IMG/VR virus record: IMGVR_UViG_3300033076_001192
Length of the DNA: 64,000 nucleotides
Strand: one strand, 5' to 3'
Source of the DNA: an uncultured virus (IMG/VR IMGVR_UViG_3300033076_001192)
Taxonomy: Duplodnaviria; Heunggongvirae; Uroviricota; Caudoviricetes
Both the position numbers and the translations under genes were made by a program. Below are positions 12,402 through 44,984 of the stretch, piece after piece. The notes under the pieces are model-generated. The model saw nothing but the letters and a program-made list of their open reading frames with translations, was not told the origin of the DNA and did no database searches. Every line of letters starts with the position of its first letter. Within the stretch, counting starts at the first letter, position 1.

Positions 12402-13481
12402 ATGCAAATTGAAATTCATCCTTCTTTAAAAAAGAACATAGATGTAATTAAGTATATTAATTGCAAAAATATAATTGTTAAGACTATATATGGATTATGC
12501 AGAACTAATATTTATAATTTACAAAATGGTGTGTTTCCAAGTATTATCACGGCATTAGATAAAACAAATTATTTCAAAAATAAATTAACAACTTTATTCC
12601 CTGATTATGAAAAAGATTTTAAAATAGTTGGCAATTACAAGAATAGTAGTTCTAAAATATTAGTAAGTGATGGGGAACATTTGTTTAATATAACAGCTAA
12701 ACATCTTATTTCAGGAATTAAGCCCTCAATGCAATCCTCTGTAAATAAAACACAATATGCCTTGTCTATTATTAAAAAAGTTCATGGTGATTTTTATAAT
12801 TATGATAAATTTGAATATAAAGGAGATAAGGGTAAGAGTATTATAATTTGCCCCTTACATGGAGAGTTTACTCAATCTTTTACACATCATTCTTCAGGAA
12901 AAGGGTGTTTTGAATGTGGTAAATTAAAAACTGCAAATTTTTCTCGACATGATTCAGAAGTATTTATAAATAAAGCTATAGAAATTCATAAAGATAAATA
13001 TGATTACTCTTTAGTTGATTATAAAAACTGTAAAACAAAAGTGGATATAATATGTAAGAATCACGGAATATTTTCTCAAATACCTATCTCTCACTTACAA
13101 GGAAACGGTTGTTCTAAATGCTCCGCAGAAGGTTTTAAAGGTGGTTACTCTAAAAATGATTTTATAAAAATAGCTAATGGTAGACCTTGTTTATTATACA
13201 TATTAAAATTAACAAATGGGTCTGAAGAATTTTATAAAATAGGTATTACATCTTTAACCGTTAATGAAAGATTTACAAATAGAAGTAAACTTTTGTACTC
13301 TTATGAAGTAATTTATGAATATACTTGTGATGCAGAATGTGTTTGGGACTTGGAAAAAGAATATCATAGAAAATACAAACATTTACAATATATACCACAA
13401 ATTCATTTTCAAGGCTATACAGAATGTTTTACAACTGATTTACCAATCGAAGAAATCATCTCCTATTTAAAACAATTATAA
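12402..13481 (+). CDS. putative homing endonuclease (CxxHG/CxxC Zn-ribbon repeats plus GIY-YIG-like C-terminal domain)
   Basis: IICPLHGEF...GKGCFEC, IICKNHGIF...GCSKC, LYILK...FYKIGIT...RF, GYTECF. Confidence 0.8.
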   Translation: MQIEIHPSLKKNIDVIKYINCKNIIVKTIYGLCRTNIYNLQNGVFPSIITALDKTNYFKNKLTTLFPDYEKDFKIVGNYKNSSSKILVSDGEHLFNITAKHLISGIKPSMQSSVNKTQYALSIIKKVHGDFYNYDKFEYKGDKGKSIIICPLHGEFTQSFTHHSSGKGCFECGKLKTANFSRHDSEVFINKAIEIHKDKYDYSLVDYKNCKTKVDIICKNHGIFSQIPISHLQGNGCSKCSAEGFKGGYSKNDFIKIANGRPCLLYILKLTNGSEEFYKIGITSLTVNERFTNRSKLLYSYEVIYEYTCDAECVWDLEKEYHRKYKHLQYIPQIHFQGYTECFTTDLPIEEIISYLKQL

Positions 13482-13484
13482 ATT

Positions 13485-13522
13485 AGACAAGAAGATTAAA
13501 TTTTTCTTGTCTTTTTGTTTTT
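13485..13522 (+). terminator. intrinsic terminator followed by TATCTTTG promoter (13530-13537)
   Basis: agacaagaa/ttcttgtct hairpin plus T-tract. Confidence 0.65.
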
Positions 13523-13718
13523 TATTCTGTATCTTTGTTTTCTAATTTTTTAACGGCGAAATTATGAATATAAACAAAAGATTACGTTTGGATTCTATAT
13601 CAATAGAGTTATATGATAATGAAACAGATGAAGATTTCAGAGTTGATGTAAACACTTTAAATGATGAGGTTGTTTTAAATAAAGAAGAAGCGTTACAATT
13701 GTATAATTATTTAAAATT

Positions 13719-14345
13719 ATGTTTAAAATTATGATAGACAATTTAGAAAAAGTGTTACCATTTTTACAATTTGATTCAGAAGATGATTTCTATTATCTTC
13801 AAATCCTTCAAAGAAAAAAGGAGAATCCTGAACTTGGTAGTAATTCAAGAGTTATTAAAAACTACTATATACGTTCACAGCAACATTTGTTAGATAGATA
13901 TGAGGAAATTAAAACTCTATGTAGAGTTTTCAATGCACGAGCTTCAATAAGATTAAATAAACGTTCTTTTGAGAAAGTGGGTTTCAAGGCTTTAGAAAAT
14001 ATTGCAAATACAATGCAGAATAGAGAATATAAACACCTAGTGAAATCTTATGACAGAGCTTGTGGACTTTTAAATAATGAAAAAGTAAAAAGATGGATTG
14101 TAGATATAGACAAGGATGAAGTTATTTGGTTAGAGCAGATTATAAATGCTATTCAACCTTGTGAACCTTCAGGAAATAAAATATTAGCTCAAATTCCAAG
14201 TAAATCAGGAATTCATTTAATTACAAAACCTTTTAATGTGCAACAATTTAAAGATTATTTTACTGATGACTTAAGTGCCTATGGTATGGATTATATTGAT
14301 TTAGAAATTCATAAAGATAATCCAACTAATCTTTATCTTATTTAG
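13719..14345 (+). CDS. hypothetical protein with AEP/primase-like motifs
   Basis: WIVDID and SKSGIHLI resemble AEP motifs I (DxD) and II (SxxGxH). Confidence 0.5.
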   Translation: MFKIMIDNLEKVLPFLQFDSEDDFYYLQILQRKKENPELGSNSRVIKNYYIRSQQHLLDRYEEIKTLCRVFNARASIRLNKRSFEKVGFKALENIANTMQNREYKHLVKSYDRACGLLNNEKVKRWIVDIDKDEVIWLEQIINAIQPCEPSGNKILAQIPSKSGIHLITKPFNVQQFKDYFTDDLSAYGMDYIDLEIHKDNPTNLYLI

Positions 14346-14425
14346 AATTAATATAAATTAAAGGGAATATTTGTTTATTCTCTTTTTTATTTTTATCTTT
14401 GTTGCAGAAAATTAAATTAAAAATT

Positions 14426-15187
14426 ATGGCAGATAACACAGCATTAGCTAAAAGAATGAAAGAAAACTACGAAGCACGTAGTAAACAATTTTTAATGAGA
14501 AGATGTCCTACTATTATAAGGTTAGATGGTAAAGCTTTCCACACTTACACTAGAGGTTTAGATAAACCGTTTGATGAGGGTCTTATGGAGGATATGGCTT
14601 CAACAACAGCTTTTCTATGTGAGAATATTCAAGGAGTTAAATGCGGGTACACTCAATCAGACGAGATTAGTTTACTGTTAACCGATTATGATAAATTAGA
14701 AACTTCTGCGTGGTTTGATTATAATGTGCAGAAAATGACCTCTATTGCTTCTTCTTTAGCTACAGCAAAATTTAATCAGTTGAGAATGAGGCGTGTTTAT
14801 GATGAATCAAAAGGAACAATTACTCCTTATTCTAACCAAACTTTAGCTTTTTTTGATGCGCGAGTTTTTCAAATATCTGATAAAGAAGAGGTTGTAAACT
14901 ACTTTCTGTGGCGACAAAGAGATGCTGAAAAGAATAGTGTTGCTATGTTAGCACAATCTTTATACTCACATAAAGAATTACATAAGAAAAATGGTTCTGA
15001 TATGCAAGAAATGTGTTTTCAAAAAGGACATAATTGGAATGATTTGTCACCACAAAAGAAAAGAGGTAGTTTTATTGTAAAACAAGTTTTTGAAACAGAA
15101 AATAAAGCCACTAGAACTAAATGGGAAATGGTTGAAGACACACCATTTTTTGGGAAAGATAGAGAATCAATATTAAAATTTTTATAG
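14426..15187 (+). CDS. tRNA(His) guanylyltransferase / Thg1-like 3'-5' polymerase
   Basis: RLDGKAFHTYT, YTQSDEISLL, FFDARVF, NYFLWRQRDAEKNS. Confidence 0.93.
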   Translation: MADNTALAKRMKENYEARSKQFLMRRCPTIIRLDGKAFHTYTRGLDKPFDEGLMEDMASTTAFLCENIQGVKCGYTQSDEISLLLTDYDKLETSAWFDYNVQKMTSIASSLATAKFNQLRMRRVYDESKGTITPYSNQTLAFFDARVFQISDKEEVVNYFLWRQRDAEKNSVAMLAQSLYSHKELHKKNGSDMQEMCFQKGHNWNDLSPQKKRGSFIVKQVFETENKATRTKWEMVEDTPFFGKDRESILKFL

Positions 15188-15188
15188 A

Positions 15189-16457
15189 ATGAAATTATCA
15201 ATTCAAGAAAACAGTAAAAACTACACTTGTTCAGTAGTAGAGATTAAAGATTTATTTCCTATTGAAGGAGCAGATGCAATTGTACGAACAGTTGTGAATG
15301 GTAATAATGTGGTTGTACCTAAAACAACAGAAGTTGGTAGTAAAATGCTTTATTTTGTTTCGGGGACTAAACTTTCTGCGGATTATTGTCATAAAAATAA
15401 TTTGTATGATAAAACAGAAGAAAACTATGATAAAGAGAAACGTGGTTTTATCAGCTTTAAGCAGAAGCGCGTGAAAGCTATTAAATTGCGTGGAATTATC
15501 TCTGATGGGATGTTGATGCCTTTATCTTCTTTGTCCTCCTTTTTAGAAAATGGTTCTATTAATTCTTTAAAAGTGGGAGATGAGTTCACTCATATTAATG
15601 GTAATTTGCTTTGTGAGAAATATATTGTATCTGTAAAAGAGTTTAATCAAGGCGGGCAAAAAACACCAAAAGCAAATAAGTTAAAAGACTTACTTTTAAA
15701 TACACAATTTCGTTTTCACCATGAAACAGAACATTTTGTAAAACATCAAGATAAGTTCAAACAAGAGACAGAAATTATTATTACTCGTAAGTTACATGGA
15801 AGTAGCTTAATCCTGGCAAATGTATTACTAAATAAAAAATTATCATTTAAAGATAAAGTTGCTAGATTTTTTGGTGTAGCTGTACCTACAGAAGAATACG
15901 GAATAATTTGGAGCTCAGGTAAACCTAAAGGAAAACTACCTAAAGGTATTGAATCAGAAACAAATAAATGGGAAACACCTAACCCAAGTTATTATACTTC
16001 TGATATTTGGGCACGAGCTTACAAAGAAATTGGTGATAAAGTTGAAAAAGGAATTTCAATTTATGCTGAAATAGTAGGAAAAGGTATTCAAGGGGATTTA
16101 TTTACTTACAACCAAGATTATGGAATTCATGTATACAGAATTACTCAAACATCTGTTGATGGCAGTGTTATTGAATTTTCTTGGGAGCAGGTTAAAAAAT
16201 ATTGTGAAAAATATGGTTTAAACTACGTTCAAGAATATTTTGTTGGTAAAGTAAAAGAAATAGTTGTTTTAAATGAAAGTTTGTTAGGTTATTTGCAACA
16301 AACTTACCTAAATAAGTCATACCCAGATTGTAAAATTGACGAAGGAATTTGTATTAGAGTTAGAGAGACAGATGAAATTTTTAAATTAAAGTCGCCTAAT
16401 TTTATTAAGATGGAGAGTGATAATCAAGAAAATGAGATTGAAGAAACAGAATCATAA
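15189..16457 (+). CDS. RNA ligase (Rnl2/DRB0094-like, with N-terminal OB-type domain)
   Basis: PIEGADAI, VKAIKLRGIISDG, motif I KLHGSS, YAEIVG, EGICIR, FKLKS. Confidence 0.82.
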   Translation: MKLSIQENSKNYTCSVVEIKDLFPIEGADAIVRTVVNGNNVVVPKTTEVGSKMLYFVSGTKLSADYCHKNNLYDKTEENYDKEKRGFISFKQKRVKAIKLRGIISDGMLMPLSSLSSFLENGSINSLKVGDEFTHINGNLLCEKYIVSVKEFNQGGQKTPKANKLKDLLLNTQFRFHHETEHFVKHQDKFKQETEIIITRKLHGSSLILANVLLNKKLSFKDKVARFFGVAVPTEEYGIIWSSGKPKGKLPKGIESETNKWETPNPSYYTSDIWARAYKEIGDKVEKGISIYAEIVGKGIQGDLFTYNQDYGIHVYRITQTSVDGSVIEFSWEQVKKYCEKYGLNYVQEYFVGKVKEIVVLNESLLGYLQQTYLNKSYPDCKIDEGICIRVRETDEIFKLKSPNFIKMESDNQENEIEETES

Positions 16458-16460
16458 GTT

Positions 16461-17132
16461 ATGAACTATAAAATAACAAAAGAACAGCATAAGTACTTAT
16501 GTACGTTACCTTTTAAACAATATTTATTTGGTAGTCAATTGCATGGTATTGCTAATGAAAATAGTGATTACGATTATGTAAGAGTTATTTCTGATGATTT
16601 TTATCTGTCTTTTACTTCTTTGGCGAAATATTTACCTAATATACATTCTTTTCAATATACTGAAGGTAAAGAGGTTCAATATGTGTGGATGACAGAATCT
16701 CAGTTTTGGCGGGGTTTTTTTAGTGGTGACGGTAATATGCTAGCTGATATCGTATTGTTAAGTGGTGAATTTGAAGACCCCTTACATTTAACTTACACTT
16801 ATAAAGTAATAAAAGGGTATATAGGTGTAACAAAAAGAGATTTAAAACTTCATAAGGATTGGGATAAAAAGATTTTTCACTCAACAAGAAGTCTTTATAT
16901 GGCAGAAACTTTAATGAGAAAAGAACTTCCAACTATAAAAGGTATTGTTGACTTATACAATCAAGACAGACTTTCTGTTGAAATACTGACACTAAAAGAA
17001 AAAGAATTAAGGGGAAAATTAAATGATATGCTGAACAAGGGAGAAATTAATTTATACCCTAATTTCAAAGAAGAAAACGAATTAGTTCAAATAATGACAA
17101 ACACAAACAATATAAGAGAGTTTAAATATTAG
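16461..17132 (+). CDS. Pol-beta family nucleotidyltransferase (RlaP-like)
   Basis: YLFGSQLHGIANENSDYD. Confidence 0.75.
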   Translation: MNYKITKEQHKYLCTLPFKQYLFGSQLHGIANENSDYDYVRVISDDFYLSFTSLAKYLPNIHSFQYTEGKEVQYVWMTESQFWRGFFSGDGNMLADIVLLSGEFEDPLHLTYTYKVIKGYIGVTKRDLKLHKDWDKKIFHSTRSLYMAETLMRKELPTIKGIVDLYNQDRLSVEILTLKEKELRGKLNDMLNKGEINLYPNFKEENELVQIMTNTNNIREFKY

Positions 17133-17135
17133 AAA

Positions 17136-18176
17136 ATGATTGATAATATATTATCAAGGGATTGCCCAACCTGCGGTAAAGAATTAAAATACGGTACAAA
17201 ATATAGTAGGTATAATGCTGATAAAGTGAGCACTCTTTGTGTTAAATGTGCTTGTGAAGTAAAACCTATAAGCCACGAGGCTTTTGAAAAGATATTACGA
17301 GAAAGTAATAAACACTTTAGAGAGGGGCTTTTCAAAATAATATCTGAATATAAAGGGCAATCTGTAAAATTAAGAGTGGAAACTAAATATGGTATATGTA
17401 ACACACACTCAAACAATCTATTAAAAGGCTTTATGCCGTCTATCACAACAGCAGAAAACAAGACAGAATATTTTAAAAAAATGCTTTTAGAGGTAAATGA
17501 AGATTATATGCATGGTAAATTTAGTATAGTTGGAGAGTACTTAGGAGGAAGTAAAATATTAGTTCAGGACAAATACTCTCAGCATTTAATATCTCCGCAT
17601 AGTCTATTAAGAGGTAAGAGTTTAACTATTAGAAGTTCTACAAATAAGAATTTATATACTATTTCTAAATTAAATGAAATACATAACTATAAATATACCT
17701 ATCCTGATATTGAGTATAGTAAAAGAGTGACAAATATAAAAATAAATTGCCCTCTTCATGGAGATTTTCAACAGTGCTTACATGACCACTACAGAGGAGA
17801 AGGTTGTAATGGGTGTGGAAGAATAGCCTCAACGGAGTTTATTAAAAAAGCTACAACAGGATGGTCAGTCGAGAGATGGAAAAGTCAAGCAAAGAAAAGT
17901 AAAAACTTTGACTCATTTAAGGTTTATATAATTAGATGTTGGAATGATGATGAAGAATTTTATAAAATTGGTAGAACTTTTTCTACAATTAAGAAGAGAT
18001 TTCCTAATAATCATACAATGCCATATAACTATGAAGTTATAGAAATTATAGTAGGAACACCAATAGAAATATACAGCTTAGAAAAAACACTTAAATTAAA
18101 GAATAAAGAGAATAAATACATACCTTTATTAAATTTTCACGGTAAAAATGAATGTTATGAAAAATACACAAAGTAA
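17136..18176 (+). CDS. putative homing endonuclease (paralog of 12402-13481)
   Basis: CPTC, INCPLHGDF...GCNGC, VYIIR...EEFYKIGRT...RF, HGKNECY. Confidence 0.78.
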   Translation: MIDNILSRDCPTCGKELKYGTKYSRYNADKVSTLCVKCACEVKPISHEAFEKILRESNKHFREGLFKIISEYKGQSVKLRVETKYGICNTHSNNLLKGFMPSITTAENKTEYFKKMLLEVNEDYMHGKFSIVGEYLGGSKILVQDKYSQHLISPHSLLRGKSLTIRSSTNKNLYTISKLNEIHNYKYTYPDIEYSKRVTNIKINCPLHGDFQQCLHDHYRGEGCNGCGRIASTEFIKKATTGWSVERWKSQAKKSKNFDSFKVYIIRCWNDDEEFYKIGRTFSTIKKRFPNNHTMPYNYEVIEIIVGTPIEIYSLEKTLKLKNKENKYIPLLNFHGKNECYEKYTK

Positions 18177-19080
18177 AATATATGCTTTTATAGGGATTTC
18201 CAATAGTGGAAAAAGTACACAAGCTCATTTAGAATGGTTGAAAGACCCTTTAAATACAGTAGTTATCTCAAGAGACAAGGTAAGAAATTTGCTTTGGAAC
18301 TACAATGACGAAGATGTTCATAAATACTATAAAAGAGACGATTTCAACAAATTAGAGAAAGAAATTTCAAAATATTGTGATACTCTTATATATGAAGCAA
18401 TAGAATCAAACAAGAAGATTATTTTAGATAATACTCATTTGGATTTTAAAAGGGATATTAAATCTTTGGAATATTGGAATGTACCTTTAGAACTTGTTTG
18501 GTTCGATATAACACTTAAAGAAGCTCTTACACGTAATATAGGACGTAATAGAAAAGTCGATGAAGAAATTATAACTAAGCAGTACAATAAGTATGTTACT
18601 TTAAGAAATAATTTTTATAATTATTCTTTTTCGCCGAAAATATTTAAACAAGATAGAAATTTACCACCCTGCGTAATCTACGATATTGATGGAACTATTG
18701 CTAAAATGAACGGTAGAAGTCCTTATGATTGGAAAAGGGTGGGCGAAGATTATATGATTCACAATGTTTGTGCAACAATTGACTGGATAGGAGACTTAGA
18801 CCTTAAAAACAGACCAAAAGTAATTATTTGTACAGGTAGAGATGGAGAAGCATTAGAAGATACTGAGCGTTGGTTAATTCAAAATAGTATTTACTATGAT
18901 GAAATATTTATCAGAAGTAAAGGAGATATGAGACCTGATTGGGTTGTTAAAGAAGAAATGTGGGAAACCATTTCAAAGAAAAACTACATTATTGGTATGT
19001 ATGATGACCGTTTACAAGTAGTTAGAAGAGCAAGGGCTTTAGGTCTAAAAGTATTTAATGTTGAATATAATAATTTTTAA
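18148..19080 (+). CDS. polynucleotide 5'-kinase/3'-phosphatase (T4 PseT-like)
   Basis: P-loop GISNSGKST, SRD, ILDNT; HAD domain DIDGT, TGR, YDDR. Confidence 0.9.
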   Translation: MNVMKNTQSKIYAFIGISNSGKSTQAHLEWLKDPLNTVVISRDKVRNLLWNYNDEDVHKYYKRDDFNKLEKEISKYCDTLIYEAIESNKKIILDNTHLDFKRDIKSLEYWNVPLELVWFDITLKEALTRNIGRNRKVDEEIITKQYNKYVTLRNNFYNYSFSPKIFKQDRNLPPCVIYDIDGTIAKMNGRSPYDWKRVGEDYMIHNVCATIDWIGDLDLKNRPKVIICTGRDGEALEDTERWLIQNSIYYDEIFIRSKGDMRPDWVVKEEMWETISKKNYIIGMYDDRLQVVRRARALGLKVFNVEYNNF

Positions 19081-24916: not shown

Positions 24917-27900
24917 ATGAACAAAGGAAAAGAGTTATTAAGTAATTTAAAATTTTATGAATCTTACTCAAAATATAGAGAAGATTTAGGAAGAAAAGAG
25001 ACGTGGGAAGAATCTGTTGATAGCGTAATGGAAATGCATTATAATAAGTTTAAGCACTTACCTGAACTATTACCATATTTAGACTCAGCAACACAATCTT
25101 ATAAAAATAAGCAAATTTTAGCTTCTCAAAGAAACTTACAATTTAGAGGAGATAGTATCAGTAAACATAATGTAAAACTTTTTAATTGCAGTTCTACATA
25201 TATTGACAGACCTGAAGTTTTTAAACAAATTATGTATATCTTACTAAATGGATGTGGTGCAGGTTATTCTGTTGAGAAGAGGTTTGTTAATAAATTACCA
25301 ACATTAAAAAAGAGAAAAGATGAGACTATAACTCATGTCATTGAAGATAGTGTAGAAGGTTGGTCATTAGCTGTAGATGCCTTAATGATGTCTTTTTTTA
25401 ATGGTAGCGAACAGATTAGATTTGATGGTTCTTTAGTCAGACCTGAAGGGGCTTATATTTCAGGGGGGTTTAAAGCTCCTGGGTTTGAACCTTTGAGAAG
25501 GTCTTTAGAGTTAATAGAAACATTATTAAACAGTAGAGTTAATAATGGGCAAGACAAACTATCAACTTTAGATGCACACGACATTGTATGTCACATAGCC
25601 GATGCTGTTTTAAGTGGGGGAATTAGACGCTCGGCTTTAATTTGTCTATTTGATAAAGACGATGAGCTAATGCTTAAATGTAAAACAGGCAGTTGGTTTT
25701 ATGATAACCCTCAAAGAGGGCGAGCGAATAACAGTATAAAACTATTAAAAACAGAACTTACAGAAGAGGAGTTCGAAACGTATAAAGAAAGCATTAAACA
25801 ATTTGGAGAACCTGGGGTTGTATTAGTAGATGATATAGATTTTTGTACAAACCCATGCGTAACAAAAGATACAATTGTCACTACAAGTACAGGGTCTTTT
25901 GCGGTAGAAAAATTAATCGGTAAGGCTTTCAATGCTGTTGTAGACGGAGTAGAGTATAAATCCTCCGCCGAAGGGTTTTGGTCTAATGGTGTTAAAGATG
26001 TATATTTGCTTGAAACAATTGAAGGATACACTTTAAAACTTACAGATAACCATAAATTAAAGACACTTAATGGGTGGAAAGAGTTAAAGGATATAACGCC
26101 TTCTGATAAAATTTTCATTAACAATCATTTAAACCTTAGTTGGGGGAATGTTACTACGGAAGATTTTAATAAAGGGTGGTTATTAGGAAATTTAATAGGA
26201 GATGGGACTTTTAATCCAAAAAATGAATCAGCGGTACTTAGGTATTGGGGTAAAGAGAATTACTTGGCAAAATTTGTCAAAGAAGTGTTGAATAAAGATT
26301 TTAGAGAAGGTAAGCCTTTTTCTGCTAATTCTGAAAAAGAAATTGTCTCTGTTGAAAGCAAGGCATTGGCAAAGTTAGCTAAAGAGTATGGGATACTTCC
26401 TAATGATAAGACTCCTAATAGTAAAATAGAGGAAACTTCTTCTTCTTTTTATGCAGGATTTTTATCAGGCATATTTGACGCAGATGGGTCTGTACAAGGA
26501 AGTTTAAAGAAAGGAGTGTCTATTAGATTGACTCAAAACAATATTGAAACATTAAGAACAGTGCAACGTATGCTCTTAAAGTTAGGCATCCGTTCCAAGT
26601 TGTATAAAAACAGAAGAGCTGAAGGATTTTACAGCTTACCTGATGGGAAAGGTAACAACAAGGAGTATTTTTGTAAGAGTGTACATGAATTAGTTATTAG
26701 TAGAGAATCTTTATTAGTTTTTAAAGAAAGAGTTGGCTTTAAATCAATTGCTAAACAAGACATTTTAGAGGAGTTATTGTCTAAGTTTACAAGAAAACTG
26801 TATAAAGACGACATGTTCTGTAGAATAAGTACTGTAGAGTACTTAGGTAAAGAAGAAGTGTTTGATGTAACCGTAGAAGATGTCCATGCATTTGACGCTA
26901 ACGGAATTGTAGCACATAATTGTGGAGAAATTGGATTTATACCTGTTAATCCTAAAAATGGGAAATCTTGTATTTCTTTTTGTAATTTAAATGAGATTAA
27001 TGGTGGTTTATGTAATACTCCTGCTAAATTTTATGAAGCTTGTAAAAACGCATCTATTTTAGGGACACTACAAGCATCATATACAAATATGCCATTTTTA
27101 GGAGTTGACACAGAAGAACTTATTAATGAAGAAGCTTTAATTGGAGTATCTATTACAGGTATTATGGATAATCCTAAAGTATTACTATCACCTGAAGTTT
27201 TAAGAAAAGGTGCTGAAATTGTGAATCAAGTTAACGAAGAGGTTGCTAAAATTATAGGTATTAATCCTGCGGCAAGAACAACAACAGTAAAACCTTCAGG
27301 AAACGCTTCTGTAATTTTAGGCACTTCTTCAGGAATTCATCCTGCACATTCAAAAAGATATTTTAGAATTATGCAAATGAATAAACAAACAGAAGTAGCT
27401 AAAGTATTAGCAGAAAACAATTCGGTTCTATTAGAAAACTCTGTTTGGAGTGCTTCAGGTAACGATTATGCTGTGTATTTACCGATTGAAGAAAATGAAG
27501 GTTCATTGTTTAAAGATGATTTATCAGATATTGATTTTGTAAAAGCAGTAGAAACAGTTTATCAAAATTGGGTATTGGTTGGAAACCATAAAGACAGAGG
27601 ATATTCAAACAGAGTAACACATAATGTATCTAATACAATCACTGTACAAGATTGGGATAATTTATTTGACCACATTTACAAGAATAAAGAATATTTCTGT
27701 GGGTTGTCTTTTATGCCAAGTTTAGGTGATAAAGTTTATAAGCAAAGTCCTTTTACAAAAGTGCTATCATTTGATGAAATAGTTTCTAAATATGGGACAG
27801 GTAGTTTATTTGCTTCAGGATTAATTGTAGATTCGTTACATGCATTTAACAATGATTTGTGGGACACTTGTCAAGCAGTAGTTGACAGAAACTTTGAATT

Positions 27901-28165
27901 GTCGGGCGATAGATATAAAGTACTGTTAAAGAAAGATGTTGTTAGAAGAATTAAAAAATTTGCAAAAAGTTATTTTAAAAATGACTTAGAAATGGCAGTC
28001 ACTTGTTTGAAAGATGTTCATTTATTCCATAAGTGGTCTATAATTACAAGGGATTACAAGAAAATTGATTTTACGGAGATTGACTTTAAACCTTCTTTTA
28101 TTGCTGTAGATACATTAGGAGCTGTTGCATGTAGCTCAGGGGCTTGTGAACTTACTTCAATTTAA
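24917..28165 (+). CDS. nrdJ: ribonucleotide reductase, probably class II (B12-dependent), containing an intein
   Basis: FNCS, GGIRRSALI, TNPC/CGEI, FCNLNEIN, TTVKPSG, C-terminal CSSGAC; no nrdB nearby. Confidence 0.82.
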   Translation: MNKGKELLSNLKFYESYSKYREDLGRKETWEESVDSVMEMHYNKFKHLPELLPYLDSATQSYKNKQILASQRNLQFRGDSISKHNVKLFNCSSTYIDRPEVFKQIMYILLNGCGAGYSVEKRFVNKLPTLKKRKDETITHVIEDSVEGWSLAVDALMMSFFNGSEQIRFDGSLVRPEGAYISGGFKAPGFEPLRRSLELIETLLNSRVNNGQDKLSTLDAHDIVCHIADAVLSGGIRRSALICLFDKDDELMLKCKTGSWFYDNPQRGRANNSIKLLKTELTEEEFETYKESIKQFGEPGVVLVDDIDFCTNPCVTKDTIVTTSTGSFAVEKLIGKAFNAVVDGVEYKSSAEGFWSNGVKDVYLLETIEGYTLKLTDNHKLKTLNGWKELKDITPSDKIFINNHLNLSWGNVTTEDFNKGWLLGNLIGDGTFNPKNESAVLRYWGKENYLAKFVKEVLNKDFREGKPFSANSEKEIVSVESKALAKLAKEYGILPNDKTPNSKIEETSSSFYAGFLSGIFDADGSVQGSLKKGVSIRLTQNNIETLRTVQRMLLKLGIRSKLYKNRRAEGFYSLPDGKGNNKEYFCKSVHELVISRESLLVFKERVGFKSIAKQDILEELLSKFTRKLYKDDMFCRISTVEYLGKEEVFDVTVEDVHAFDANGIVAHNCGEIGFIPVNPKNGKSCISFCNLNEINGGLCNTPAKFYEACKNASILGTLQASYTNMPFLGVDTEELINEEALIGVSITGIMDNPKVLLSPEVLRKGAEIVNQVNEEVAKIIGINPAARTTTVKPSGNASVILGTSSGIHPAHSKRYFRIMQMNKQTEVAKVLAENNSVLLENSVWSASGNDYAVYLPIEENEGSLFKDDLSDIDFVKAVETVYQNWVLVGNHKDRGYSNRVTHNVSNTITVQDWDNLFDHIYKNKEYFCGLSFMPSLGDKVYKQSPFTKVLSFDEIVSKYGTGSLFASGLIVDSLHAFNNDLWDTCQAVVDRNFELSGDRYKVLLKKDVVRRIKKFAKSYFKNDLEMAVTCLKDVHLFHKWSIITRDYKKIDFTEIDFKPSFIAVDTLGAVACSSGACELTSI
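25856..26920 (+). mobile_element. intein with LAGLIDADG homing endonuclease (355 aa)
   Basis: starts CVTKDT, has LTDNH, LLGNLIGDG, FLSGIFDADG, ends VFDVTV...IVAHN before Cys; splits the NPCGE motif. Confidence 0.93.
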
Positions 28166-39001: not shown

Positions 39002-39190
39002 TTAAAAAGGGGTAATATTTTTCTTTTTAGGTAATAGTTCGTAGTAATCTTTTTTAATTTTTTCTTTTACAGCATCTCTGATAAATTGGGCTACGTTTAT
39101 ATTATAACTTGCTAATTTATTTAAAGTATTATCTTGTATTTCTGAAAACTTTATAGTGCGTGGTTTATTATATTTTATTGGTCTTGGCAT
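39002..39190 (-). CDS. small ribbon-helix-helix-like DNA-binding protein
   Basis: PRTIKFSE...L..L...NVAQFIRDAVKEKI. Confidence 0.55.
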   Translation of the reverse strand: MPRPIKYNKPRTIKFSEIQDNTLNKLASYNINVAQFIRDAVKEKIKKDYYELLPKKKNITPF

Positions 39191-39225
39191 AAATAAGTAT
39201 TACTTTTATAGCGCATAGCGATTAG

Positions 39226-39885
39226 TTATGCAATATATCTTTCAACAGAAGCGATAGTATCATGTATTGCTCCGCCATGAGAAAATAAAGCTATTTTTTC
39301 AACTTTAAAACCTCTATTAGCACCCATTGTATTTGAATGATAACCAAAAGTTATAACCTTCCCATTTGGTTTTAAAACATTCAACACTTCATCTTTTAGC
39401 TGTTTAAAAGGACTGCATTTAATACCTTTGTACATCTCCATACTTTTACGATATGCATAAGGTGGGTCAAGAAGTATAGTATCAAATTTATCTCCTTTCC
39501 ATGTTCTTAAAAACTCAAGAGCATCCATTCTATAATCAGCTAATGCTTCATCGTCTAAATCATTTCTAACTTCATCAATGTTTAACTTTGTTCTGCCAGC
39601 AAAAAGATTTAATGTTTTACCTTCGCAATTATTTTCAGTCCATTCACGTATGTTTTTAATTTTAAAAGTATATTTATGCAATGGACATTTAATGTAATCA
39701 AATTTTACTTTGTTTTCATTTACATATAAATTATATCTATGCAATAATGATTCTGTAATGTCAAAATTAAAAAATGGACTATTTTCAAATCCTTGATTTT
39801 TTAACCAATCTTTAGCACTTAATACATCGCATAACACAGGTTTTGTGCTATTGCTTGTTTCGGTGTTTTCTGAATGTTTAGTCAT
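39226..39885 (-). CDS. adenine/N4 DNA methyltransferase-like protein (cassette 1)
   Basis: LNLFAG, DALEF, ILLDPPY. Confidence 0.75.
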   Translation of the reverse strand: MTKHSENTETSNSTKPVLCDVLSAKDWLKNQGFENSPFFNFDITESLLHRYNLYVNENKVKFDYIKCPLHKYTFKIKNIREWTENNCEGKTLNLFAGRTKLNIDEVRNDLDDEALADYRMDALEFLRTWKGDKFDTILLDPPYAYRKSMEMYKGIKCSPFKQLKDEVLNVLKPNGKVITFGYHSNTMGANRGFKVEKIALFSHGGAIHDTIASVERYIA

Positions 39886-39964
39886 AATCTGTATTTTTTA
39901 GTGTTTAAATTAAAATTTGTTTTATTTTTGGTCGCAACAGACACAAAGCCTGAGAACGTTATGT
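39829..39964 (+). repeat. attC-like site 1 (136 bp)
   Basis: GCATAAC-acaggttttgtgctattgc...gcaacagacacaaagcctgagaac-GTTATGT. Confidence 0.8.
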
Positions 39965-39970
39965 TCAATG

Positions 39971-40525
39971 TTATTTTTTCAGAACGTTCTCGAATACAAT
40001 CACGTTTTTCAAAACATTACTGCATAAAAACACACTTGAAAAAGGTGGATTTAAACTTGGTTTTTGGTCATCATAACTTTTAAAGTAACTTATTCTTTTA
40101 TCAAAATACATTACTTCAATTTTGTTATCTCGGAACATTTCAAAACGCTTTTTGCTTTCAAATAATCCCACTACTCCAACAAGCATTGCAAATGGTCTTT
40201 CTAATTCAAATAACTTTTGAAAAACTTCTGCTTTAATTGAATAAGGCGGATTTGAAATAATATAATCAAATGATTTACATTTTTCTTTATCTGCATCAAA
40301 AAAATCAAATCCTTCCGATATATGGCTATTAGAAACAATATGTCCTTCTTTTTTCAATAATTTCACAAAATTACTTTCATTAGTATCAAAAGGACACCAT
40401 ATTTTACTATTTGGTTTTAGGTGTTTTAGCAATGGTTCAATTGCATAATTTGGCGTGTAAAATTCATCATTTGGATTTATTTCGCCTTGTTTTTCTGCTT
40501 TATTTGTAATTAAATCTAATTTCAT
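39971..40525 (-). CDS. adenine DNA methyltransferase-like protein (cassette 2)
   Basis: DEFYTP, IWCPFD, DFF, ISNPPYS. Confidence 0.75.
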   Translation of the reverse strand: MKLDLITNKAEKQGEINPNDEFYTPNYAIEPLLKHLKPNSKIWCPFDTNESNFVKLLKKEGHIVSNSHISEGFDFFDADKEKCKSFDYIISNPPYSIKAEVFQKLFELERPFAMLVGVVGLFESKKRFEMFRDNKIEVMYFDKRISYFKSYDDQKPSLNPPFSSVFLCSNVLKNVIVFENVLKK

Positions 40526-40558
40526 AATTGGAATTTACGGTTAAAAAAATAACACAAA

Positions 40559-40690
40559 ACATAACAGCAATTTGGCAAAATGGCGGGTTTAATGCTTAAT
40601 TGATGTTCTGTGCTTCTATTAATGTTTTGTTTTAAATTGAATGTTCTCGTTTCTTAATCCGCCACATCGCCAAGTTGCAGAACGTTATGT
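40559..40690 (+). repeat. attC-like site 2 (132 bp)
   Basis: ACATAAC-agcaatttggcaaaatggcgg...ccgccacatcgccaagttgcagaac-GTTATGT. Confidence 0.8.
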
Positions 40691-40707
40691 GATAGTTTCA
40701 AAGACGT

Positions 40708-41324
40708 TTATCGTTCATTCCACACCAATTCTAAAGCTGAAACTCCACCACGTTTAGAAGTTTCATCAATATCTAATTTTTCAATAACTTCAATCGCCTT
40801 TTTTACATTATCAAAATAATCCATTTCAACATTCAAAGGAGTGACGATTAAGTTTAAAAAGCCTTCCTCTTCTAAAACACCTCCTACAAAAAATTCACCA
40901 CTTGAAACTATGTAGCATTCAGGCTTTCCGTTTCTCCAATATTCTGTTTTTAAACATAAATATCCGTCAAATAAAAATAATCCAATAGGGCATTTACCTA
41001 ATTTTACATTTCTTTTCTGTTTTTTAATTAGCATTTCTTTTCTATTTTATCAATTAATAATTTATGTAATTCTGTTGGGGTTAATCCTTTAAACGAAACG
41101 CTTTTACACTTTCCATTTTTGCCTCCGATACAATCTCTAAAATCCATTCTCGTCTGGTTTCCTTCTTGAAATACAGATAATTTCAGTTCGTCAATAATAA
41201 AAGTTACTTTTTTAATACAATCTTCTTGGGTTACATCAATGAAGTTCAAGTACTTAGTTTCTTCATCTTTTTTGGTAATGGTTAATCTAATTAAATGTAT
41301 AGGTTTTGGCTCATATATTTTCAT
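40708..41324 (-). CDS. two hypothetical genes in cassette 3 (40708-41034, 41028-41324)
   Basis: ORF track. Confidence 0.65.
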
Positions 41325-41396
41325 AATAAATCTATTATTGTTTAATAAAGTGGTTAGCTTTATTGTTAATTTTTAACTTTATTGTAAGAAACCATC

Positions 41397-41527
41397 ACAT
41401 AACATCGGTTTTGCTCTATTGCGGTTTTAGGCTTATTCGATGTTCGGTTTGTATTTGTTAATTTTGTTTTTAATTCCAAGTTTTTGCTTACTTTTCCGCA
41501 ACAAAGCAAAGCCGAGAACCGTTATAA
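41397..41527 (+). repeat. attC-like site 3 (131 bp)
   Basis: ACATAAC-atcggttttgctctattgcgg...ccgcaacaaagcaaagccgagaacc-GTTATAA. Confidence 0.8.
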
Positions 41528-41533
41528 CTCATT

Positions 41534-41749
41534 TTACAGAACTGTGTGTCCTGCTTTTACAAGTCTATCTACTGATTCCATCATTTGTTGCCTTTGTTTA
41601 TTCTCATCGTCTTTTGTAAATTCATCAAAAAGTTCATAGCCTAATTTCCAAATTTTTTCTTCTTTCCATCCAAAAAATGTTTTTTTGCTAATTGCAAAAT
41701 ATTCATATCCATCCCATGTCGAGTACTTACCAAATTTATAAGTTGCCAT
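41534..41749 (-). CDS. hypothetical protein (cassette 4)
   Basis: ATG at 41749 (MATYKFG...). Confidence 0.6.
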   Translation of the reverse strand: MATYKFGKYSTWDGYEYFAISKKTFFGWKEEKIWKLGYELFDEFTKDDENKQRQQMMESVDRLVKAGHTVL

Positions 41750-41762
41750 AATAAAAAACGAG

Positions 41763-41895
41763 TTATAACAGTGGTTTTGCTCAATGGCTGTATTTGGCAA
41801 AATTTCAGCACTGTTTTATGTTTGTAAAATTTGTTTTTAATTAAATAATTTAGACTTGCTTTTCAGCCACTAAGCAAAGCCACAGGGCGTTATCA
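41763..41895 (+). repeat. attC-like site 4 (133 bp)
   Basis: TTATAAC-agtggttttgctcaatggctg...cagccactaagcaaagccacagggc-GTTATCA. Confidence 0.8.
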
Positions 41896-42120
41896 CTCAG
41901 CTTGCGGAACAGTATAGACCGCATTGAAAGTGTTTTTAGTAATACCATAATGAAACATTAATCTAAACCACAAAAAACAATACATTGTGCTTTTTTTATG
42001 TTTCATATTCCAAGTATCAATTCTTTGTGGGAAAACGTAACAAAAATTTACAACGTGAAATGTCACTTGTTTTTTGAAGTTTTTAAATAAAGTTGGTTTT
42101 TCAAAACTAATATTTTTCAT
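41893..42120 (-). CDS. hypothetical protein (cassette 5)
   Basis: ATG at 42120; stop codon lies within the core site. Confidence 0.55.
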   Translation of the reverse strand: MKNISFEKPTLFKNFKKQVTFHVVNFCYVFPQRIDTWNMKHKKSTMYCFLWFRLMFHYGITKNTFNAVYTVPQAE

Positions 42121-42145
42121 AATTTGTGATTTTAAAAAGCCGAAG

Positions 42146-42277
42146 TGATAACAGCGGTTACACAATATTGCCACTTCGGGAGTTATTTAATATTGTTTTT
42201 GTACTTGTTTTGTTAGTTGTTTAATCAAATGTTTTCGCTTACTTTTGGCAACATCGTGTAGCCACGGAACGTTAGTG
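42146..42277 (+). repeat. attC-like site 5 (132 bp)
   Basis: TGATAAC-agcggttacacaatattgcca...tggcaacatcgtgtagccacggaac-GTTAGTG. Confidence 0.8.
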
Positions 42278-42481
42278 GCTATTTTTAGACAACCACCCAT
42301 TTCTTTGTTTCTCATTTTTTACAACAAGATTTTTTCGCTCGTACATTTTTCTGCATTTTTGACAAACAACAGCACCAACAATAACTGGTTGACCATTATC
42401 GTAGTCCATATATTCAATTGAAGATTTATTATCATTATACCATTCAATGCTTATTTCGTGACCACAACTTGCTATTATCAT
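42272..42481 (-). CDS. small Zn-ribbon-like protein (cassette 6)
   Basis: SCGH...CQKC. Confidence 0.6.
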   Translation of the reverse strand: MIIASCGHEISIEWYNDNKSSIEYMDYDNGQPVIVGAVVCQKCRKMYERKNLVVKNEKQRNGWLSKNSH

Positions 42482-42494
42482 AATATAAAACAGC

Positions 42495-42625
42495 CACTAA
42501 CATTATATTGGCAAAAGAAAGGCTGACGTTCTAAAACCAACAGAAGTACACTTATTTAACTTTTGTAATTGACATCGGCAGTAGCACTTCTAATCCCTGC
42601 CTTTGCCAATGATTCAACGTTATAA
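42495..42625 (+). repeat. attC-like site 6 (131 bp)
   Basis: CACTAAC-attatattggcaaaag...ctttgccaatgattcaac-GTTATAA. Confidence 0.72.
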
Positions 42626-42643
42626 GACATTTTAGGACGACCA

Positions 42644-43060
42644 CTACCAATCAGATGGACTTGATGATGAACTATCATAAGAACTTCCTGAATCATAACT
42701 TGACGAATCACTACTACTTGACCAGCTACTGCCACTATCATAAGAACTACTATCATTGTGGCTCGAATGGTGGCTATTGTTATCATAATTAGAATGACTT
42801 AAACCACTATCATAATTAGATGAATTATCGTTGTGGTTTGAATGAATACTACTATTATCGTCATTACTATTTCCTATCCAAAATGGACTTAATGGATTTA
42901 ACGGACTTAAAAGATTTGTAGGACTTAATAAGTCGTTATCATTGTTGTTTTGCGAATTATTACTTGAATAACCGCCACCACTTACACTATTTGAGTAAGT
43001 TCTTTTTTGTTCTTTTTTCGGCTCTTGTTTTTTACCGAATAATCTTTTTAACCAATTCAT
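42644..43060 (-). CDS. Ser/Asn/Asp-rich low-complexity protein (cassette 7)
   Basis: MNWLKRLFGKK...; SSSYDSGSS repeats. Confidence 0.7.
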   Translation of the reverse strand: MNWLKRLFGKKQEPKKEQKRTYSNSVSGGGYSSNNSQNNNDNDLLSPTNLLSPLNPLSPFWIGNSNDDNSSIHSNHNDNSSNYDSGLSHSNYDNNSHHSSHNDSSSYDSGSSWSSSSDSSSYDSGSSYDSSSSSPSDW

Positions 43061-43080
43061 TGTTTTTAAATTAGATAATA

Positions 43081-43126
43081 GTCTTGTATTTAATCGGCAA
43101 CAAGACAAAGCCACAGAACGTTATAG
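43081..43126 (+). repeat. truncated attC-like site 7 (right arm only)
   Basis: ggcaacaagacaaagccacagaac-GTTATAG present; expected left arm TTATAAC absent. Confidence 0.65.
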
Positions 43127-43130
43127 GCAA

Positions 43131-43352
43131 TTATAAATCAGTCCTATATTTAAGCATTGCATCTTTAAAACCTTTGTCATAAGCATTATCCATATCTTTT
43201 TCTAAATAATTGCCTATAACACCAGTTTGTTGCAATTGTAAGGCTTGGTATTCTATCAGTAATGTTTCTAATTCAATGCTTTCTCCATCACAATCAACAA
43301 TGTATTGAGTATCAAATATTCCTTTATGTTTTAAAAATTCTTTAGCATTCAT
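43131..43352 (-). CDS. hypothetical protein (cassette 8), largely encoded inside attC8
   Basis: ORF reads through the attC left arm (LQQTGVIGN). Confidence 0.6.
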   Translation of the reverse strand: MNAKEFLKHKGIFDTQYIVDCDGESIELETLLIEYQALQLQQTGVIGNYLEKDMDNAYDKGFKDAMLKYRTDL

Positions 43353-43416
43353 AATTTTTGTAATGTTTTAGGTTGATTAATCTTTGCAACTGCAACAAGC
43401 TGAGGGAACGTTATGC
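43214..43416 (+). repeat. attC-like site 8 (203 bp, expanded loop)
   Basis: CTATAAC-accagtttgttgcaattgtaa...ttgcaactgcaacaagctgagggaac-GTTATGC. Confidence 0.75.
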
Positions 43417-43428
43417 CTAATGGGAAGT

Positions 43429-43998
43429 TCACGAAGAAACTTCGGCTTTGAATTGTCGTTTCAGTTCCGCTTTAAAAATATTGCAGACATCCTTTGTAGT
43501 ATGTGATACGTAAATTCCTTTTGAAAATTTATCTTTAAATTCATCCCAAATGTGTTGGAAATTGTTGTCGCCAAAATTATAGCCGTGATAATTACAATAC
43601 AGGTTAATTCTACGTTTCAAATAATCTAAGTCACGTTCTTTTTTAGGCACGTATATTATCAATTCTGAAAATTCTTTTCTGAAAAGTTCTATACCTTCAT
43701 CAGAAATAAAATAGTAATTCAAACCTCGTTGTTCTTGCTTAACAGCTAATCCTTTTTCTACCAAGTCATTCAGAGCCGAATCATTTTCAGTTTGGTAATA
43801 GTTTCGGTAAAATTCTTTTGGTAAGGTTTTATCTTTTTTTCGGTGCGACATCATCGCATTATAGAACGGAATACCTAAAGAGTGTGCAATTCTATCCATT
43901 TGAATTTTTGTTAGCGTGTATGGTATATTCGCACTAGGCATAACACTCGTTTGACTCAATGCCTTGTTATCTGCTGTATTCAATTTTCCTTTATCCAT
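43429..43998 (-). CDS. hypothetical protein (cassette 9)
   Basis: HSLG...YRNYY...LVEKGLA; starts inside attC9. Confidence 0.65.
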   Translation of the reverse strand: MDKGKLNTADNKALSQTSVMPSANIPYTLTKIQMDRIAHSLGIPFYNAMMSHRKKDKTLPKEFYRNYYQTENDSALNDLVEKGLAVKQEQRGLNYYFISDEGIELFRKEFSELIIYVPKKERDLDYLKRRINLYCNYHGYNFGDNNFQHIWDEFKDKFSKGIYVSHTTKDVCNIFKAELKRQFKAEVSS

Positions 43999-44067
43999 GA
44001 TGTTTTTTATTAATTTGGAAATTTATCTTTCAAACTCGGCACTAAGCCAAGTGAGGGAACGTTAGAT
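43938..44067 (+). repeat. attC-like site 9 (130 bp)
   Basis: GCATAAC-actcgtttgactcaatgcc...ggcactaagccaagtgagggaac-GTTAGAT. Confidence 0.8.
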
Positions 44068-44073
44068 GTAACG

Positions 44074-44385
44074 CTACGATTCGTACTTCAATTTAAGTTC
44101 CTCGTATTTTTTACGTTCTCTTTCCGCTTTCTTTTGAGCAGCAACTAACTTATTTTGTTCATCTGCAACCCTTATATTGTATTCTGTATCATTTTCTAAT
44201 CTCATGCCCATCACAATCAGTTCTGCTCCATCGTGATAATAATCCATTTTAAAATGTACAGAAGTCCATCCTTCTTTTTCTAACTTATCTTTTTGTTCCA
44301 AAATAAGTTTTGCGGCTTTCTCAAAAGAAGTCATAAACATATCTGTATTGATATTTACTTGACTTAAAATTCGTTTTCTTTCCAT
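44074..44385 (-). CDS. hypothetical protein (cassette 10)
   Basis: RLENDTEY...RERKKYEELKLKYE. Confidence 0.65.
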   Translation of the reverse strand: MERKRILSQVNINTDMFMTSFEKAAKLILEQKDKLEKEGWTSVHFKMDYYHDGAELIVMGMRLENDTEYNIRVADEQNKLVAAQKKAERERKKYEELKLKYES

Positions 44386-44440
44386 ATTTTTTGTTATTAA
44401 TCCACACTGCTAGTAACTCGTTAATAGTTATATTATCAAT

Positions 44441-44984
44441 CTAACGATATAAATTTATTTTAGCATTTCTCTTATCTTCATTAGTAGGTAATTTATTACA
44501 AACTCGATGCTCTGCTGTATAATTACCATCTTTTTCACACCAACCATCATATCTTTGTGATTTTTTATCTTCTTCTCTTTGTCTAAAGAATTTACAATTA
44601 TCACATCTAACTAGATTTAATTGATAAGCCATAATTTTTAATTTATTTCTCTTTATATATTTAGTTTTAATATTACAAACCACTCACTAACTCATCAAAT
44701 CTCTCTTTTGAAACTATAATTTCTTGTCTTAAAATTTTGTTTTCAATAAGTTCAGAAAGTTTTTCTTGTGTTTTAGTTTGCATTACTACAACTTGTTCAA
44801 GTATTTTGTAAATATCTCCACCCTGTAATAAATGTTCAATACAATACCTAAAAACTATATTATTTTGATATAACTCCAACCCATTATCAAATTTAGAAAG
44901 CAGTGCAGTAATACTACTGTTAACATAATCCATATTCAATGTTGAGCTCTGTGATGCAATTGTGTTTTGTTTTGAGTTTTTCAT
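44441..44984 (-). CDS. two small genes (44441-about 44632, CxxC; 44673-44984)
   Basis: ORF track. Confidence 0.55.

Follow-up and report, generated by a model that had tools for sequence, protein, structure and literature searches.

Site-specific crossover inside a reading frame is known from shufflons and from invertible tail-fibre segments (R64 Rci/pilV, Mu Gin, P1 Cin), where it joins alternative halves of a protein. In shufflons a few fixed segments are inverted at one locus by a dedicated invertase, and one N-terminus stays constant. Integrons, described here and below from the accessible parts of the sources, occur in Bacteroidota among other phyla (PMC8618304), and their integrase, IntI, is defined by an insertion near patch III (PMC4889954). 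In their attC sites each arm has an unpaired spacer of 5-6 nt and the R'' arm also has extrahelical bases, whose loss favours top-strand recombination by IntI1, a result that concerns canonical sites and a different enzyme from the one considered below (PMC5027507). The origin of new integron cassettes is stated to be unknown (PMC4889954). Clusters of attC sites with methyltransferase genes are known from phages, and among six sites P12002L_attC1 was the only one without a verified IntI1 recombinant (PMC9892861). Translation starts borne by integron sites have also been described: ORF-11, ORF-17 and ORF-18 in attI1 and the short ORFs in attC serve the gene that is joined to them, and stops lie in the core; fused cassettes of the gcuF1-blaOXA-28 type are accidental fusions after attC loss (PMC8876359).

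The window analysed here is a stretch of 64,000 nucleotides from an uncultured virus (IMG/VR IMGVR_UViG_3300033076_001192) with a G+C content of 28.6%. PHROG matches to a virion protein, a helicase and a primase/polymerase identify it as phage DNA, and no close cultured relative of its DNA polymerase was found, the best match being 36%. The hairpins and start contexts described below point to a host among the Bacteroidota. Elsewhere in the window, 24917-28165 holds a ribonucleotide reductase-like gene, presumably with an intein and a homing endonuclease as judged by eye from its motifs, and 12402-19080 holds two endonuclease-like genes together with a run that, on the same basis, we take to be like tRNA-His guanylyltransferase, RNA ligase and polynucleotide kinase. 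From 39225 to 44611 extends an array of ten integron-like cassettes, in which every cassette gene lies on the minus strand, against the attC polarity. Nine right-hand cores of one type on the plus strand (39955 to 44064) and a tenth core at 39225 define the ten units, and the sites are directly oriented. The features are as follows.

39002..39190, minus strand: small DNA-binding-like gene directly after the attI-like site (phrog_25647, E 1.7e-22; DUF6290 weak, below cut-off)
39195..39231, plus strand: attI-like entry site, crossover between G and TT at 39225; the array opens at the GTT core, with no hairpin before it
39226..39885, minus strand: cassette 1 gene for a DNA methyltransferase (match to phrog_11619 beginning at residue 65, E 3e-41); the ATG lies within the hairpin 1 loop and the stop in the R' core
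39829..39964, unstranded: hairpin 1, 136 nt; hairpins 85-88% identical to it precede unrelated bodies in L126 and L048
39971..40525, minus strand: cassette 2 gene, DNA methyltransferase (phrog_799, E 6.8e-32); start outside the hairpin
40559..40690: hairpin 2, 132 nt
40708..41324, minus strand: cassette 3, two small genes (40708-41034 and 41028-41324); starts outside the hairpin
41397..41527: hairpin 3, 131 nt
41534..41749, minus strand: cassette 4 gene with its ATG in the body; from a TTG, a longer frame extends into the arm
41763..41895: hairpin 4, 133 nt
41893..42174, minus strand: cassette 5 ORF; uncertain whether it starts at a GTG in the arm or at an internal ATG; TGA stop within the core, no PHROG match
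42146..42277: hairpin 5, 132 nt
42272..42481, minus strand: cassette 6 gene (phrog_37545, E 0.0012); stop in the R' core
42495..42625: hairpin 6, 131 nt, degenerate
42644..43060, minus strand: cassette 7 gene, fused to half hairpin 7 right at the loop ATG
43058..43126, unstranded: half hairpin 7, with R' arm, A-rich leader and ATG; full-length relatives have the ATG at the same place
43120..43220, unstranded: cassette 8 body, 101 nt, with complementary 12-nt ends; encodes a 29-residue C-terminal module, R'' joint at 43220
43131..43352, minus strand: cassette 8 gene for 73 aa, made up of a loop module (37 residues), the arm peptide LQLQQTG and the body module
43214..43416, unstranded: hairpin 8, 203 nt; arms, A-rich initiation region at about 43353-43380, ATG at 43352, N-terminal coding module in the loop
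43429..43998, minus strand: cassette 9 gene (phrog_13561, E 9e-9, from residue 29); first ATG in the loop of hairpin 9, A at -3
43938..44067: hairpin 9, 130 nt
44061..44611, unstranded: body 10, inverse core at 44605-44611, arms absent; two ORFs, 44074-44385 and 44441-44632, of which the second runs across the core

The units alternate between a body with self-complementary GTT...AAC ends and a hairpin, which stands before its minus-strand gene. In nine of the ten units the inverse core is complementary to the unit's own first bases over 7-12 contiguous bases, body 7 being the one without, and in the phage and bacterial sets described below the complementarity of the ends averages 9.5/11. Eight hairpins are complete. 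Site 7 is half a hairpin, with the R' arm present and the R'' arm and complementary inverse core absent from the cassette, and unit 10 ends at the inverse core. Four extra bases sit on the R' arm in 77 of the 87 hairpins from bacteria and in 273 of the 409 from phages, a 5-versus-1 spacer; inside the spacer follow 4 bp and then a 1x1 mismatch, a single bulged base was found in none of the eight window sites, and the extrahelical bases of attC are absent. The bottom strand folds more stably in seven of the eight window sites, by 0.3-3.3 kcal/mol. An Rfam search of the window and a nucleotide search of cultured phages with the site gave no match.

The array resembles integrons and phage CALINs in its GTT-core units with complementary inverse cores, its folded sites and its putative attI-like entry site, and phage CALINs also in its methyltransferase cargo and the lack of an integrase in the array (PMC9892861, accessible part). 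The differences lie in the genes, which are antisense and led by hairpins, with the start and the N-terminus within the site, in the 5-versus-1 spacer, and in the partner recombinase without the IntI insertion that is described below. The integron rule that genes are read towards attC from the attI promoter does not describe the window or 324 of 337 phage ORFs, and does describe 70 of 79 bacterial bodies. As a cluster of sites with no recombinase within these 64 kb, out of a contig of 124,476 bases, the window may be like a CALIN, but its sites, named attC in the initial annotation, are attC-like and not canonical attC. Judged from sequence, the array would work like an integron and partly like a shufflon, while departing from integrons in its recombinase, site geometry and gene orientation. 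With a shufflon it shares a site-specific crossover inside a reading frame that joins protein halves; unlike a shufflon it has direct sites, both halves vary, none of 38 pairs is inverted, and the halves circulate among many phages. The P12002L_attC1 site is itself a hairpin of the window class.

Pattern scans and a script detector, which gave one hit per 75,833 shuffled bases at the threshold used, yielded a catalogue of 413 hairpins in 140 phage loci, six of which are phage-like contigs within genome bins, and 90 hairpins in 11 bacterial loci. No count includes L058 and L061, in which there are no hairpins, or the loci L070-L089, which centre on recombinases; the unpublished genome G002 is one of the five recombinase cases, forms part of the bacterial counts and is the L062 case below. 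The ORF lies on the bottom strand in the 324 phage bodies given above and on the top strand in the 70 bacterial ones. The arm pattern gave 80 matches in one Flavobacterium genome and none with the reversed control, and the Flavobacterium chromosomal hairpins follow normally oriented genes, beside a XerA-like recombinase. Among cultured phages, Ingeline_1, Leef_1 and Freya have a long coding hairpin one or two genes before a recombinase, and P12002L has several long coding hairpins. The Polaribacter phages Freya_1-10 are isolates of 43,978 to 48,920 bases. In G002, an antisense cassette of the phage type with a 202-nt coding hairpin of the hairpin 8 arm type lies amid the bacterial array (L062:7997-8288), which suggests that host and phage arrays trade cassettes.

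In all five bacterial genomes the best match to TIGR02249 is found 38-158 nt before the first body. The array-linked recombinases reach 205-211 bits on this model against a cut-off of 265 (4/4 tested), and the matches skip its positions from about 182 to 237; the proteins lack the IntI insertion and are XerA-like; the catalytic R, K, H, R, H and Y are invariant in five aligned array-linked recombinases. A viral homologue stands directly after the entry site in six loci (four complete, 265-267 aa). The bacterial recombinase is directed towards the array and that of phages away from it. In the window this slot is taken by the small gene at 39002-39190, probably encoding a ribbon-helix-helix-like product, and the same site and gene occur together at the array end in L009, L013/L040 and L128; relatives have at this place either a homologue of the gene or the recombinase. 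The attI-like motif in these three other contigs is conserved and forms no hairpin, and its role as an entry site is putative. A short palindrome in the entry site could be an operator of the small DNA-binding-like gene. In the bacterial entry sites of L090 and L095, which lie in the gap from the recombinase to the first cassette, a TAnnTTTG-like element is found right before the crossover; it presumably resembles the -7 promoter element of Bacteroidota.

The predicted starts of several genes lie inside the sites, as had been noticed from the sequence of this stretch alone. Hairpin 8 exceeds the seven other complete hairpins (130-136 nt) by about 71 nt, in agreement with the roughly 70 bp given in the initial annotation, and it carries a ribosome signal, an ATG and 46 of the 73 codons of ORF 43131-43352 (46.3 inside the hairpin; about 45 had been counted). 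The space between the cores, put at about 100 bp, is the 101 nt of the cassette 8 body, with 12 of 12 end bases complementary. The first ATGs of ORFs 39226-39885 and 43429-43998 likewise fall in the loops of hairpins 1 and 9, and the stops reported to coincide with the core do so at 39226 and 42272 as the core TAA and at 41893 as a TGA inside the 7-mer core; ORF 43131-43352 has its own stop 11 nt outside the core. Standard hairpins of about 132 nt add a leader of 15-25 residues (cassettes 1 and 9), and long hairpins a module of 35-45 residues (cassette 8). Cassette 9 has a second ATG within the R'' core in poor context, and no close relative of it was found among viral contigs; its start in the hairpin loop is proposed from the sequence context.

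Comparison of related hairpins supports the proposal that the sites serve both as start signals and as coding sequence, and the starts in hairpins look real. Of the distinct long hairpins (170-240 nt), 32 of 32 contain a frame that opens with ATG, runs for 30 codons or more and is in register with the GTT of R''; the other two frames gave none, and shuffled loops 2.3%. Excluding the arm type of hairpin 8, such a frame was present in 11 of 11, several of which had been found through an in-frame body and are therefore not independent of the register test. An A occupies position -3 in 31 of the 32, a positive determinant of initiation in Flavobacterium, where Shine-Dalgarno sequences are not used (PMC6847099, accessible part), and the frame stays open for at least 29 codons into the body in 23 of the 24 long hairpins with a defined body. 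Near-identical loop modules showed 8 synonymous and 3 non-synonymous changes in four pairs, a small sample, and pairs of bodies showed no synonymous excess (2:4, 2:6 and 7:11). Standard hairpins have an ATG in the loop in 164 of 268 phage and 19 of 90 bacterial cases, as counted in an earlier, polarity-filtered hairpin catalogue, and the A content of their loops on the bottom strand is 49% in phages vs 39% in bacteria. The first ATG is in the hairpin for 131 of the 324 bottom-strand phage bodies; the core TAA is the stop in 80 of the 324, and 235 end within 15 nt of the core.

The methyltransferase family of cassette 1 gave a further comparison. Its relatives show 26 distinct N-termini in the 41 sequences examined, a set in which two sequences gave no ORF and from which two partial loci were left out. 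Where a hairpin was detected the start lies in it in 9 of 9, with no later ATG before the domain in 8 of 9, and four methyltransferases free of hairpins start 2-3 residues ahead of the domain. Residues 21-60 of cassette 1 (39706-39825) form a 40-residue insert between leader and domain that is not seen in its relatives and by eye is like the loop modules. Two hairpins that share their arms with hairpin 8, in L027 and L028, reach only about 130 nt and are non-coding. Counter-examples come from P12002L, where the frame of one long hairpin stops in the arm and that of another two codons past the core. Five of the eight complete hairpins of the window have no gene start assigned to them, which speaks against our preferred explanation. 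Pfam and PHROG returned nothing for the cassette 8 protein or 12 homologues apart from one sub-threshold hit, and in a structure atlas the cassette 8 protein gave a best feature score of 0.89 to unnamed clusters and a model with a pTM of 0.22 and no usable fold.

Sequence comparison shows that hairpins and bodies have been re-paired across phages at the GTT of R'', in frame, which yields predicted chimeric proteins. L001 and L002 have the arms and body of cassette 8 (93% and 89%; bodies overall 87-93% identical) with unrelated loops and neighbours, and in three groups loops that are 95-100% identical stand before unrelated bodies. The search proposed in the initial annotation, for the arm peptide L.Q..V on unrelated C-termini, found this conserved peptide followed by such C-termini. 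Clustered at 60%, 44 proteins (24 from protein searches, including that of the window, and 20 from loci) formed 18 N families and 27 C families in 37 combinations. The N family of the window is found with 14 C families, or 11 if a looser subfamily is set aside, and the C family of the window with 8 N families; these counts are biased towards the window's halves, which served as queries. A sister body occurs behind nine different upstream flanks, with a mean identity of 95% in the body and 53% in the flanks, and in 35 of its 36 pairs the stretch in common ahead of the G in GTT is only 1-4 nt long; five further pairs have 1-3 nt in common upstream and 14-69 identical nt downstream of GTT. When pairs with the same hairpin and unrelated bodies were compared, 30 of 43 diverged within 4-8 nt of the G and 13 shared 16-29 nt past GTT, placing most joints within T-GTT-A at R'' and some inside the body.

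The joint is the inverse core R'', whereas integrons usually cross over at R' and so carry their genes along unbroken. An ordinary crossover at R' cannot swap N-termini, since each start lies inside its own cassette and moves along with it. The earlier idea that recombination swaps N-termini therefore stands as far as re-pairing at the GTT core is concerned, but needs an exchange at R''. We had read the arrays to mean that starts stay with their cassettes and N-termini are not swapped, and this was overturned by the different loops, neighbours and bodies in the relatives. Sixteen phage families of bodies were found, two of them within the same array; of the 14 in different arrays, three keep their own hairpin in a new context, seven have it replaced (at most 70% identity), two are intermediate and two mixed, and none keeps its R'-side neighbour while changing its own hairpin. 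The sole valid bacterial pair of bodies kept its own hairpin. From these outcomes the movement of whole cassettes at R' appears to be faster and exchange at R'' slower. Loop modules also differ between identical arms (window, L001 and L002), which a cut at R'' alone does not explain, and related loop modules occur between different arms (L006/L097 and P0014/L170).

Several other candidates were set aside. Two pairs that resembled a bacterial swap were the same body read from both strands and were removed under a stricter rule. A search for longer fusions gave one hit for nine candidates, another body of the same kind, and two matches to 700-residue proteins, at 35% over no more than 26 residues, were regarded as fortuitous. 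Inversion of bodies as the origin of the antisense cassettes was found in none of 38 homologous pairs. An assembly artefact is unlikely, as unrelated arms share 1-4 nt at the joint and cultured phages have the same build.

With a probability of about 0.6, we interpret the array as a phage-adapted, integron-like system of Bacteroidota in which a XerA-like recombinase moves cassettes and also re-pairs protein halves at R''. The A-rich loop would offer, on the bottom strand, an initiation region free of Shine-Dalgarno sequences together with the ATG. The tyrosine recombinase, encoded by the host or supplied by a related phage, would cut 5'-AAC-3' in folded sites, at R' on the bottom strand and at R'' on the top strand. 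A bottom-strand cut at R' would move body and hairpin together, so that the gene travels whole; a less frequent top-strand cut at R'' would join a body to another hairpin and hence to another start and N-terminus. The missing extrahelical bases may make the sites weakly strand-selective. In the bacterial orientation of genes an exchange at R'' would alter only the site, whereas in the antisense, loop-started phage genes it would alter start and N-terminus, and selection would retain joins that are in frame. Long hairpins are in the frame in which GTT encodes valine and methyltransferase leaders in another, so that joins across the frame classes give short peptides, for example in L030 and L019. 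Joins that lie inside bodies, and loops that differ between identical arms, can be explained by homologous exchange or repeated creation of cassettes. The lack of inverted bodies speaks against our interpretation, as mixed top and bottom cuts might yield some, and so does the absence of a recombinase from these 64 kb. Most likely the chimeras would serve, beside the methyltransferase cassettes, as a diversifying set of small accessory proteins with which the phage takes over its host or counters defence. A stronger version, possible but clearly short of even odds, is that Bacteroidota phages share a two-part gene-building kit driven by a recombinase, with starts and N-terminal modules on the hairpins and C-terminal modules on the bodies. 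The same XerA-like enzyme would be able to cut the one strand or the other, so that genes move whole at R' and in-frame chimeras form at R'', and exchange at R'' would also be a route of cassette creation.

The chimeras could be real and yet owe nothing to a cut in the top strand. Arms and cores may instead have recombined through short homology or gene conversion (phage RecT-like annealing), or cassettes may have been created repeatedly and independently, each time by attaching a finished hairpin and core to a gene or part of a gene. The 13 pairs with a longer stretch in common beyond GTT would fit such events, as would the loop changes between identical arms, the related modules between different arms and the gene fused at its ATG to half hairpin 7; in bacteria 368 pairs of near-identical hairpins precede different bodies, and near-identical hairpins with different genes have been linked to a cassette-creating mechanism that is stated to be unknown (PMC4889954, accessible part). 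However, the 1-4 nt shared in the nine-flank family are too little for homologous exchange, the five further pairs have bodies that are identical from GTT onwards behind arms with almost nothing in common, and the joint is where a tyrosine recombinase would cut, so that we regard this explanation as unlikely. Somewhat less so, though still rather improbable in our judgement, is that the loop modules are expression devices only, with a translated leader that opens the hairpin and leads the ribosome on to the body, and with N-terminal residues that are tolerated passengers, swapped with no functional effect. Eighteen unrelated N families do occupy the same role, methyltransferases take many unrelated leaders in place of a start of 2-3 residues, some modules end right after the core (L030, L019 and P12002L gp41), and translation in class 1 integrons benefits from the short ORFs of attI and attC (PMC8876359, accessible part). 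Yet module and arm make up 44 of the 73 residues of the cassette 8 protein, modules remain 95-100% identical across cassettes with an 8:3 synonymous excess (small numbers), and standard hairpins already supply a start, which leaves a 40-residue insert unneeded.

We consider it very improbable that the overlap of genes and sites is an accident of gene calling, with AT-rich loops open by chance and either real starts within the bodies or no translation of the ORFs at all. It is true that the first ATG of a standard hairpin need not be used, as cassette 9 with its second ATG in the core illustrates, and that a bottom-strand ORF is also called in 9 of the 79 bodies from bacteria, a measure of the noise of the ORF rule. 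The open frame of the long hairpins was nevertheless universal and confined to a single frame, far above the 2.3% expected by chance, the conserved frame of the cassette 8 body has no start before residue 54, and cassette 1 has no other in-frame ATG before its domain.

The ORFs in attI1 and attC are close to the window class in that a site-borne start serves the joined gene; they differ as sense-strand helpers of 11-18 residues (PMC8876359, accessible part). The window class differs from these ORFs and from the fused cassettes in having intact sites with modules of 35-45 residues in frame with exchangeable C-terminal bodies. Genes that start in sites and swapped termini are not described in the accessible text of PMC9892861, and a published report of the system or of swapped protein termini was not found in the literature searched, which covered few subscription journals. 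The new point is the mapped, combinatorial exchange of protein halves. If the interpretation is right, a recombination site has evolved into the front half of a gene, and Bacteroidota phages would have a population-wide, combinatorial source of small orphan proteins. In these arrays one can see that the joint between hairpin and gene has been remade, and locate it to about five bases, which bears on how cassettes are created. Arm peptides such as L.Q..V or KP.L in phage proteins mark the sites and will mislead family clustering and start calling.

The whole gene at the loop ATG of half hairpin 7 may be an intermediate or a decay product, and its position suggests that the 5' part of a gene comes into a loop by exchange or deletion between A-rich start regions. 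In L004/L109, L003 and L108 the cores are changed (AAT for AAC) or the arm peptide lacks a partner arm, as in decayed or fixed cassettes.
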